A DNA stretch of 64,000 bases. Source: Alphaproteobacteria bacterium. GTDB lineage: Bacteria; Pseudomonadota; Alphaproteobacteria; GCA-2746255. The notes under the pieces were generated by a model. The model was not told the DNA's origin. It searched no databases and saw nothing but the letters and a program-made list of their open reading frames with translations. The stretch lies in NCBI GenBank assembly GCA_965249135.1, contig OZ252220.1, forward strand, positions 960,001 through 1,024,000, in the 5' to 3' direction. Positions 36,865 to 38,187 of the stretch are shown here, piece by piece. Position 1 is the stretch's first letter, and every line of letters starts with the position of its first letter. The translations under genes were made by a program, and so were the position numbers.

Positions 36865-36895
36865 AAAAACTGGTGCCCAGGGGCGGAATTGAACC
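36865..36895 (-). repeat. Copy 1 of tRNA-Phe 3' end (31 bp, att-like)
   Basis: aaaaactggtgcccaggggcggaattgaacc identical to 38106-38136. Confidence 0.93.
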
Positions 36896-36899
36896 GCTA

Positions 36900-37379
36900 A
36901 TGGCTAGCGAACTGATCAGCGTAGTCGCCGTTTCGACGGCGTTGGGTGCCGCCTTGGTTGCCGGTATCTTCTTCGCCTTCTCAACCTTCATCATGAAAGC
37001 TCTCAGCCGCCTACACCCCGAACAAGGGATCGCGGCAATGCAGTCCATTAACGTGACGGTACTCAACCCCTGGTTCTTTGCCGTGTTTTTCGGAACGGCG
37101 CTGGGCTCGATAGTGCTTGCCCTATTTGGAATCCTTGACTGGGGTGCGGCTGGGTCGACCTATCTGGTCGCCGGCAGCCTGCTTTACGTGATCGGCTGTA
37201 TCCTGGTGACCATCGTGTTCAACGTCCCGCTCAACCATGCACTGGCCGCTGTGGAACCGGACAGTAAAGAGGGTGCCGAAACGTGGACCCGGTATCTCTC
37301 CACGTGGACGACATGGAATCACCTTCGAACGGTCGCCTCGCTTGCCGCCGCAGCGGCGTTCATCCTGGCAATTCGATAA
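36900..37379 (+). CDS. DUF1772 (anthrone oxygenase-like) membrane protein
   Basis: AGIFFAFSTFIM-AL, AMQSIN, NVPLN--LA, W--WNHLRT. Confidence 0.88.
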   Translation: MASELISVVAVSTALGAALVAGIFFAFSTFIMKALSRLHPEQGIAAMQSINVTVLNPWFFAVFFGTALGSIVLALFGILDWGAAGSTYLVAGSLLYVIGCILVTIVFNVPLNHALAAVEPDSKEGAETWTRYLSTWTTWNHLRTVASLAAAAAFILAIR

Positions 37380-37435
37380 TCCCACCCCGCCCAGAGTGCA
37401 TACTCCATTTCTTAGATTCCCATACGATAGCAGTC

Positions 37436-37476
37436 AAAAACTGGTGCCCAGGGGCGGAATTGAACCGCCGATACGC
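37436..37476 (-). repeat. Copy 2 of tRNA-Phe 3' end
   Basis: Same 31 bp, plus 10 bp more with two mismatches to the tRNA. Confidence 0.93.
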
Positions 37477-37571
37477 CGGGGCGGCCCTTGCACACTTGAA
37501 CGTCCGAAAGCAGGGGTTTTATACTTTCCATCTGCCTATCCGCATCCGTTAGCGTTACTTGGAGACCAGCC

Positions 37572-37994
37572 ATGAAGCCGAAGCATTTCGTCTATGCGTT
37601 GCTTATCGCATCGGTTCCGTTCTTCGCTGGAAGCGCCTCGGCGGAACCAACTTTGTGGGGTATCTACGGCGCGCACAATTTGCACGACTGCCCAGTCAAC
37701 AATCGCGAGACGGCGAAGGCGGTGATCGCGCTCAACGCGATGGACCTCAAACCGTTGATGGAGAAGTATGGAGTCACGCGTTTCTTGGACCGATACCATT
37801 CGGGTCTCGAACACACTTTCCTCTGGGCCGTCGAGACCAACGAGCCACATAATCTGGAAGAGTTTGCCATCGAGCTCGGCGTCGCCAGTTGGAACGACTT
37901 GAAATTCGTGCCCCTGCGCACGTTTGAAGAGGGTGTCGTGCCGGTCGTTCGTGTGCTGCACGGCCTGGAAGACTGGAAACCACCAGCCGAGTAA
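37572..37994 (+). CDS. Exported hypothetical protein (H-x4-CP motif)
   Basis: GGAG RBS, signal peptide ending ASA, HNLHDCP. Confidence 0.65.
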   Translation: MKPKHFVYALLIASVPFFAGSASAEPTLWGIYGAHNLHDCPVNNRETAKAVIALNAMDLKPLMEKYGVTRFLDRYHSGLEHTFLWAVETNEPHNLEEFAIELGVASWNDLKFVPLRTFEEGVVPVVRVLHGLEDWKPPAE

Positions 37995-38111
37995 GCGAGC
38001 CACAATCGATTTGCGAGCCCGATGGCCGGTGCCGAGATCGCACCGAGCGCGTGGCCGGCGCTACCCCGAACAACGGGGGCTAAGGCAATTCCATCGAGCG
38101 CATTAAAAAAC

Positions 38112-38187
38112 TGGTGCCCAGGGGCGGAATTGAACCACCGACACGCGGATTTTCAGTCCGCTGCTCTACCAACTGAGCTACCTGGGC
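38112..38187 (-). tRNA. tRNA-Phe(GAA)
   Basis: GCCCAGGTAGCTCAGTTGGTAGAGCAGCGGACTGAAAATCCGCGTGTCGGTGGTTCAATTCCGCCCCTGGGCACCA, 76 nt. Confidence 0.97.

Follow-up and report, generated by a model that had tools for sequence, protein, structure and literature searches.

The genome of an alphaproteobacterium of the lineage GCA-2746255 (GenBank assembly GCA_965249135.1) contains a single intact gene for phenylalanine transfer RNA (tRNA-Phe), and beside it lie two very short units of DNA, each holding one gene and each marked off by a copy of the 3' end of that tRNA. This study deals with the structure of these two units and with their likely history. The window that was analysed is a stretch of 64,000 nucleotides (nt) of contig OZ252220.1 (positions 960,001 to 1,024,000 of the forward strand); positions given below count from its first letter unless they are called genome positions. 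An original prediction, made from the letters of the window, had read the units as an integron-like array of minimal cassettes, captured at the tRNA by an integrase acting in trans or by homologous recombination.

Copies of the tRNA-Phe 3' end

The tRNA-Phe(GAA) gene lies on the minus strand at 38112-38187 (ARAGORN; Rfam tRNA score 72 bits) and is the sole intact one in the genome. The window contains exactly three plus-strand copies of a 26-nt core of the repeat, CTGGTGCCCAGGGGCGGAATTGAACC (at 36870, 37441 and 38111), with no matches over 100 dinucleotide-preserving shuffles; in the whole genome of 2,118,282 bp, with up to two mismatches allowed, the core is found at those three places only. 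Together with an adjoining run of A, the exact three-way identity extends to 31 bp (starts at 36865, 37436 and 38106), which comprises five A, a C and the last 25 nt of tRNA-Phe. The spacing between the repeat starts is 571 bp for unit 1 and 670 bp for unit 2, and each unit contains exactly one plus-strand open reading frame (ORF), all of which had been predicted correctly. The three copies are direct, with the intact tRNA at the inner end, the arrangement by which tRNA-site islands are recognized. Further repeat fragments were sought at 23000-36860 by a local-alignment scan, which did no better than shuffles.

The length of 31 bp holds as the extent of three-way identity, but the individual copies are not bounded by it. 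Copy 1, the outer copy (36864..36897, minus strand), consists of six A, a C and 25 nt of the tRNA from the CCA end to the T loop, followed by GC, and it ends at 36897. Copy 2, the inner copy (37425..37476, minus strand), is 52 nt long and 88% identical to 38095-38146; it comprises about 16 nt of degenerate trailer and 35 nt of tRNA-Phe, from the CCA end to the variable loop. The tRNA-like arm on the inner side thus measures 2 nt in copy 1 and 10 nt in copy 2. The trailer of the live tRNA-Phe gene (38095..38111, minus strand) resembles the stretch upstream of copy 2, the two agreeing at 11 of 16 nt.

The tRNA part of copy 2 differs from the live gene at two places, with G for A at 37467 and T for C at 37472, and copy 1 has the same G at 36896, opposite the A at 38137 of the live tRNA. 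This shared G had been taken as the mark of another allele as source, and it does point to a foreign tRNA-Phe-like source: genuine tRNA-Phe genes with the copies' G are both those of one genome of the class (G061) and that of another organism in sequencing run X19. The A and C of the live tRNA are present in all five genus relatives, in each of which tRNA-Phe is a single-copy gene. The T loop tells a different part of the story, for the live tRNA and both copies have GGAATTGAACC (plus strand) and all five genus relatives have GGATTTGAACC, a difference of one base, and the 3' part of the live tRNA-Phe gene may be element-derived.

The same two-unit layout was found in contigs from three runs of three other studies, which diverge by 2-3% from the window (about 97% identity). 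Because these runs were chosen as holders of this stretch, they demonstrate persistence of the layout and not the absence of variants. Joints expected of circles (37435-36898 and 38105-37467) and exact skips of one unit were absent among the joints listed for these contigs, a form of data that drops rare variants; one joint in X19 (37471-38162, with 20 letters between) was rejected as a candidate deletion, being the tRNA-Phe gene of another organism. It is extremely improbable that the repeats are an artefact of assembly or the product of local duplication of the tRNA end. Repeats can mislead assemblers, but the independent contigs of these three other studies span copy 1 (36779-36969 and 36785-37826), copy 2 (37074-37711) and the junction between unit 2 and the tRNA (37685-38155 and 37798-38147), and a duplication is at odds with two units that are alike in the repeat alone, have otherwise nothing in common and hold genes with separate foreign relatives.

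Foreign genes in the two units

The gene of unit 1 (36900..37379, plus strand) encodes a membrane protein of 159 amino acids that belongs to Pfam family PF08592 (Anthrone_oxy, or DUF1772; E-value 3.4e-19). Its ATG at 36900 stands 4 nt past the 31-bp repeat, as predicted. Two metagenome loci resemble the gene at the DNA level, L069 with 89.9% identity over 36894-37420 and L070 with 87.9% over 36894-37390. The first 41 nt of the 3' spacer of unit 1 (37380..37424, plus strand) are likewise homologous to L069, after which the trailer-like part of copy 2 follows. The likeness of unit 1 to outside records ends 0-15 nt from the repeats, so that foreign DNA fills the unit almost exactly between its two repeats.

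The left junction of unit 1 retains a trace of the former surroundings of the gene. In L070, L071 and L076 a conserved gene lies upstream of the DUF1772 gene (NmrA-like in L070, the one scanned), and in L070 and L071 the stop codon of this gene overlaps the DUF1772 ATG as TAATG. Of this usual partner the window keeps TAATG alone, directly after copy 1, i.e., the DUF1772 gene has been severed from its NmrA-like partner precisely at the partner's stop codon. The inner arm of 2 nt and the abutting stop codon of a lost upstream gene together suggest that copy 1 was trimmed by a later deletion. The original prediction of a minimal-cassette design fares poorly at this point, since the left junction of unit 1 looks trimmed rather than like a built cassette end. 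L069 has a setting of its own: its 90%-identical DUF1772 gene lies between two 78-nt repeats (158-235 and 977-1054; 78% alike and 819 bp apart), 30-nt hairpin sites occur at 207, 872, 1026 and 1782, and an ankyrin-repeat gene comes next, which looks like another kind of cassette array.

The gene of unit 2 (37572..37994, plus strand) encodes a protein of 140 amino acids without a sequence match in Pfam, NCBIfam or PDB, the N-terminus of which reads like a Sec signal peptide, suggesting export. An alignment of 25 members shows eight invariant residues (H35, H38, C40, P41, H76, H81, H93 and H130), and the protein has 511 relatives in a large protein collection. It occurs at 63-85% amino-acid identity in species-genome records titled with about ten phyla, e.g., Latescibacterota, Gemmatimonadota, Nitrospina, Thermodesulfobacteriota, Gammaproteobacteria/Woeseiaceae, Bacteroidetes, KSB1, Acidobacteriota and Planctomycetota, and several of the records from other phyla are complete chromosomes. 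Compared as DNA, unit 2 and a Latescibacterota record agree at 87.6% over 37561-37981, and five other records reach 80-84% identity. This likeness sets in 11-18 nt before the ATG (37554/37561) and ends 13 nt before the stop codon (37981), which leaves about 80 nt upstream and about 100 nt downstream in unit 2 outside the likeness. A promoter-like site upstream of the gene (TTGAAC, 18 nt, TATACT; 37496..37525, plus strand) matches the consensus weakly; two promoter-like sites were found against 0.9 expected from shuffles, which is not significant, and terminator-like sites likewise occur at shuffle frequency.

With respect to the fold of this His/Cys protein, the predicted model is mediocre (mean predicted local distance difference test score 68.5) and gave no Foldseek match at an E-value of 0.001 or below. 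The best Foldseek rows were dimeric ferredoxin-like/ABM proteins (E-value 0.002-0.01, template-modelling score 0.37-0.47), in agreement with weak Atlas leads to DUF3303 and GYD (0.80-0.86), and a ferredoxin-like/ABM fold is a lead only. Among the 96 ORFs that neighbour the gene in 27 loci, DoxX occurs at seven loci, PNPOx-like proteins at five, MOSC at three and CMD at three, and no integrase or transposase is present. A DUF1348 gene is also a frequent neighbour, in L040 a cytochrome P460 gene adjoins the gene, and in a Gemmatimonadota record the gene is immediately preceded by a c-di-GMP-I-GGC riboswitch (L037:669-780; RF03167, with a score of 68.9 bits, which exceeds the gathering score).

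Both genes are foreign to the lineage in which they were found. Neither protein was detected by six-frame search in 20 relatives, including five of the same genus, and the DNA of both units had no match in 40 relatives among the matches listed. At the DNA level, the identity to other records, some of them from other phyla, is 88-90% for unit 1 and 80-88% for unit 2. Base composition was considered as a further sign of foreign origin and rejected: the unit genes have a G+C content (GC) of 0.565-0.579 and a third-position G+C content (GC3) of 0.69-0.72, which is not distinct from the long ORFs of the genome (GC 0.616, GC3 0.70). The original prediction had proposed a search for the same genes beside tRNA-Phe fragments elsewhere; with up to five mismatches allowed, no such fragment was found in the 113 loci related to the two genes.

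Recombinases, the tRNA-Phe hotspot and related intervals

No integrase was detected by Pfam on the genes of the two units. A six-frame search of the whole genome with PF00589 yielded five matches, all outside the window; about 59 kb separate the tRNA from the nearest of them (genome position 1057343). By NCBIfam, these five tyrosine recombinases are XerD, XerC and three unassigned ones, one of which lies 10 bp from tRNA-Ser(GCT). Against the integron integrase model TIGR02249 the recombinases of the genome score 33-136 bits (cut-off 265). The best match between any of them and the integrases of tRNA-Phe islands elsewhere has 33% identity over 310 amino acids; the integrase concerned adjoins a tRNA-Phe copy in G303. 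These searches covered tyrosine recombinases, and the units are too short to hold a serine recombinase.

The chromosome to the right of the tRNA is conserved and that to the left is variable. To the right, yacG and maf (38250..39042, minus strand) and then infA and hisD are syntenic in the genus relatives G001, G002, G003 and G005, and the contig of G004 ends inside the tRNA gene. To the left, the distance from a conserved gene (24689-25303 in the window) to tRNA-Phe is 4-10.6 kb in G001, G002 and G005, and the content between them differs: glycosyltransferases in one, a histidine kinase and a GGDEF protein in another, and DUF5131 and a desaturase in the third. No integrase was seen among the 42 ORFs scanned in these stretches, and an integrase-bearing island at tRNA-Phe, of which the units could have been eroded remnants, was seen in none of the five genus relatives. 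The combination of a variable left and a syntenic right side marks tRNA-Phe as a variable hotspot. Content at the locus varies between species of the genus, and the strains in the contigs of the three other studies, all picked as holders of the stretch, share one layout.

Directly outside copy 1, the left flank is formed by a gene for a Lys/Ala-rich repeat protein (36525..36821, plus strand), which follows csp (36030-36239) and contains seven 15-nt tandem repeats, with a weak, below-threshold match to histone-H1-like HC2. The pair of csp and the Lys/Ala-rich gene is conserved elsewhere in relatives. Further out, two cytochrome P460 genes (33961-34620, minus strand; 34917-35366, plus strand) and a DUF899 gene (33251-35366 in all) stand between msrA and DUF488, which are adjacent in G002.

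Other intervals bounded by tRNA-Phe tails were assessed in a class sample of 401 genomes, in 261 of which the tail was matched (this tally includes the unpublished genome G244, with a single copy). Genomes with at least two same-strand copies at positions that could be obtained were followed. Full tRNA genes in tandem (G061) were excluded, and so were copies located on separate contigs or hundreds of kb from each other. The 22 intervals obtained fall into two size classes. Below 10 kb there are 13 intervals in nine genomes, namely, the two units of the present genome (G000; 0.57 and 0.67 kb), G168 (0.72 kb), G323 (0.85 kb), G033 (1.0 kb), G096 (2.1 kb), G139 (2.8, 3.2, 4.4 and 5.2 kb), G246 (5.9 kb), G177 (6.5 kb) and G215 (7.7 kb), and only one of the 13 has a PF00589 match, which is partial, contains a stop codon and adjoins the outer copy (G246). 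At 10 kb or more there are nine intervals in seven genomes (G383, G303 with two, G262 with two, G103, G304, G330 and G249), and seven of the nine have such a match. These counts indicate that tRNA-Phe integrases exist in the class and that small segments without an integrase recur. In G303, for example, an integrase lies 119 bp from the tRNA-Phe copy. A tRNA-Phe-targeting integrase, which the original prediction had proposed to look for, was not found among the tyrosine recombinases of the present genome.

The cargo of the small intervals is diverse. The 718-bp unit of G168 (L149:2114-2856), which extends from a 47-nt copy of the tRNA-Phe tail to the tRNA itself, contains the gene pair DUF433-DUF5615 (PIN-like), which probably forms a toxin-antitoxin module; G323 (846 bp) holds a GNAT gene, G033 (about 1 kb) a helix-turn-helix protein, G215 a type I restriction system and G177 a molybdopterin oxidoreductase operon. 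A rule that cargo always reads towards the tRNA was dropped, because the two genes of the G168 unit are on the strand of the tRNA. In G139, one stretch of 11.7 kb (L163, C112:14500-26200) has four copies of the tRNA-Phe 3' half at 622, 3838, 6632 and 11039, 2.8-4.4 kb apart, three of the four with the same 28-nt hairpin insertion in the T arm; it contains no intact tRNA, the two PF00589 matches of G139 are on other contigs, and the genes between the copies are mixed (GFA, regulators, Sel1, SDR, AraC).

Four further tRNAs of the present genome have exact tail copies at a distance: Val-CAC (4.4 kb apart; G000:C1 81357-85866), Val-GAC (17.6 kb; 937068-954789), Met-CAT (about 49 kb; 2082876 to 13805, across the origin) and Lys-TTT (129 kb; 315300 and 444693, on the unexpected side), and none of the five PF00589 matches lies inside these spans. 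At tRNA-Thr(GGT) (51884-51958), by contrast, an exact copy of the last 47 nt, together with 30 nt or more of trailer, occurs 46.7 kb downstream (genome position 1058682), and next to this far copy, on its inner side, there is a tyrosine recombinase (genome positions 1057343-1057774), so that the window includes the start of a classical island of 46.7 kb; among the two Val, the Thr and the Met segments, it is the Thr segment only that has a PF00589 match.

Could the two units be true minimal mobile cassettes, i.e., circles of 571 and 670 bp moved by a tRNA-Phe integrase in trans and forming an open integron-like array? Unit 1 is nearly nothing but a gene and an attachment copy, units from below 1 kb to 1 kb bounded by tRNA-Phe occur in three other families of the class (those of G168, G323 and G033 above), and recent movement of the cargo genes between distant hosts is evident. 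This explanation is nevertheless unlikely. There are two units only, with no further fragment in the 23-36.86 kb stretch; the two-unit layout recurs in the strains of the three other studies that are about 97% identical, though that search favours holders and strains without the units would be invisible to it; a helper integrase is wanting among the tyrosine recombinases of the genome; no tRNA-Phe fragment accompanies the 113 related loci; and copy 1, with its inner arm cut to 2 nt, would make a poor attachment site. The layout of two uniform units, with no integron integrase or other recombinase nearby, does not support the integron-like array that was originally predicted.

The points at which such copies break off on their inner side bear on whether a site-specific recombinase was involved at all. 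The inner end falls at the T loop in copy 1, in the Val-GAC and Lys-TTT copies of the same genome, in G139 and in G215, and at the anticodon loop in the Val-CAC, Thr and Met copies of the same genome and in G033, G096, G168, G177 and G246, and the outer copy of G323 extends to the variable loop and then decays. According to work reportedly published by Williams in 2002, the T loop and the anticodon loop are places used by integrase subfamilies. Insertion without such an enzyme would be a RecA-dependent Campbell insertion, via 31-35 bp of homology, of DNA with a tRNA-Phe 3' piece, or the import of a ready-made array from a relative by flank homology. The copies do share 31 identical bp, about 31 bp is near the usual minimum for RecA pairing, and the uniform layout would be accounted for if the finished array had spread within the species through homology of its flanks. 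Yet homology alone would scatter the inner ends of the copies instead of placing them at two loops, and it leaves unexplained the source of a gene joined to a tRNA-Phe tail, which makes this route quite improbable.

Origin of the units and comparison with known systems

The explanation that accounts best for these observations, and that is probably correct, is that the two units are the scars of two successive site-specific insertions at the tRNA-Phe hotspot, whose recombinase is now gone and whose units were trimmed and became fixed in the species. An additive genomic island would have formed at the single tRNA-Phe gene, and the locus would be its tRNA-proximal end. Foreign DNA would have entered twice in succession, each time as a gene-sized piece, by Campbell-type site-specific recombination in the last 25-35 nt of the tRNA, each insertion restoring an intact tRNA from the incoming attachment site and pushing the earlier junction outward, where it was left as a partial 3' copy. 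Copy 1 would then be the older and copy 2 the younger scar. The most likely source of the recombinase is a transient tRNA-Phe-specific integrative element that left cargo behind or acted in trans. Deletion in the small genome may then have trimmed each unit to one selected gene, and in their present state the units would be fixed, immobile scars.

The letters of the copies are consistent with this course of events. If the crossover took place inside the now-identical 31-bp stretch, each outer copy is predicted to change from host to incoming sequence at the crossover point, and the rebuilt tRNA to show the opposite order. It follows from a crossover in this stretch that the outer copies are foreign on the side of the tRNA body (G in copy 1, G and T in copy 2) and that the live tRNA has the native A and C; the foreign letters on the inner side of both outer copies are thus as predicted. 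Two related incoming arms would also be expected to resemble each other as the stretch upstream of copy 2 resembles that upstream of the live tRNA. The exported-protein gene has also been found in a comparable position: a Nitrospina record has it in a segment of 2.8 kb that is flanked by tRNA-Glu on one side and by a decayed copy of the 3' half of that tRNA on the other, and that contains no ORF of integrase length. The core of the original prediction, i.e., attachment-type copies of the tRNA-Phe 3' end around foreign single-gene cargo without an integrase, is supported.

Several points weigh against two site-specific insertions. The T loop of the genus relatives, if it is the native one, would be expected in copy 1, yet it is absent from copy 1. 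The history is read from scars in the sequence, and the identity over 31 bp would also permit RecA-driven recombination. Among the five tyrosine recombinases of the genome, none that targets tRNA-Phe was found. No vector with either gene emerged from searches of plasmids, phages and viral contigs: in plasmids the exported protein was without a match, phage records matched the tRNA gene only, and the viral contigs had neither a relative of the two proteins nor an exact copy of the 27-nt site with the G allele. Lastly, the non-coding parts of unit 2 gave only chance-level matches of 20-48 nt in 400 genomes of the class.

Several known systems resemble the locus in part. Cis-mobilizable elements (CIMEs) are derivatives of integrative elements in streptococci that are flanked by attachment sites, lack an integrase and can be mobilized by related integrative and conjugative elements. 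The two units resemble CIMEs, as these are generally understood, in having attachment-site repeats, no recombination module and a tandem arrangement at the integration site; they differ in that they are far smaller and that no parent element is known. Tandem islands at ssrA in Dehalococcoides are reportedly the subject of an earlier paper (PMC3146451). With integron arrays the units share single genes with scant non-coding DNA, one orientation and a pool common to distant hosts, whereas their boundaries are, by alignment, tRNA-Phe tails rather than attC sites and an integron integrase is absent.

Three further published systems can be compared with the locus. In the additive island fGI-2 (flexible genomic island) of 'Ca. 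Methylopumilus', 20-nt tRNA-Lys repeats recur and inserts range from 330 bp to 42 kb (PMC10872708). As in that island, recurring tRNA 3'-end repeats separate inserted genes here, the inserts being two, of one gene each, at a site whose content differs from species to species of the genus; unlike there, only two units are present, the compared strains (all holders of the stretch) do not vary, and the cargo has been traced to near-identical genes in other phyla with the ends of likeness mapped. The tycheposons of Prochlorococcus are stacked elements separated by partial tRNAs, with further partial tRNAs scattered, and in the proposed model transient elements leave behind flanking material without integrases at tRNA islands, most of the material in tycheposon islands being without integrases (bioRxiv 10.1101/2020.12.28.424599). 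The present locus is likewise anchored at a tRNA and stacked between partial tRNA copies, but a tycheposon itself has a tyrosine recombinase and often replication genes, neither of which is present in these units. In classical tRNA-site islands, partial tRNA copies are the attR of integrated elements, and the islands are 9-23 kb or more in length with their own integrase (PMC9897764); the intact tRNA at one end and the direct partial 3' copy at the other are shared with the locus, which in contrast to the islands so described has units of 571 and 670 bp and no integrase. Additive islands with tRNA repeats have already been published, and the present locus is a miniature two-unit example without an integrase. 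A limited literature search found no description of this locus or of the exported-protein family, and a search of that extent cannot show that none is in print.

A broader possibility is that one-gene units with tRNA tails represent a general way of gene capture in small genomes, by a recombinase acting in trans, and correspond in function to the integron. A helper integrase would insert gene-sized DNA, drawn from a pool that crosses phyla, at a tRNA T loop, and such DNA could be moved onward. Hints in this direction come from the tRNA-Glu segment of Nitrospina, the 78-nt repeats of L069 and the 12 of 13 small intervals without an integrase; as a general mechanism it is doubtful, and the scars of two past insertions remain the preferred explanation of the locus.

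For genome annotation, a tRNA tail of this type can be mistaken for a tRNA gene, and inserts of this kind will escape any island finder for which an integrase is obligatory. Two by-products of the analysis deserve mention, namely, the spread across phyla of a conserved exported His/Cys protein and the recurrence across the class of small tRNA-bounded segments without an integrase. With defined junctions on both sides, the two tiny units offer a test case for three possible origins of such inserts: deposition by a passing element, movement in trans and the trimming of a larger island. They provide a case, base by base, of a streamlined 2.1-Mb genome that gains single useful genes at a tRNA hotspot without keeping the mobility gene, and the genes gained so belong to a pool that is common to phyla of sediment bacteria.

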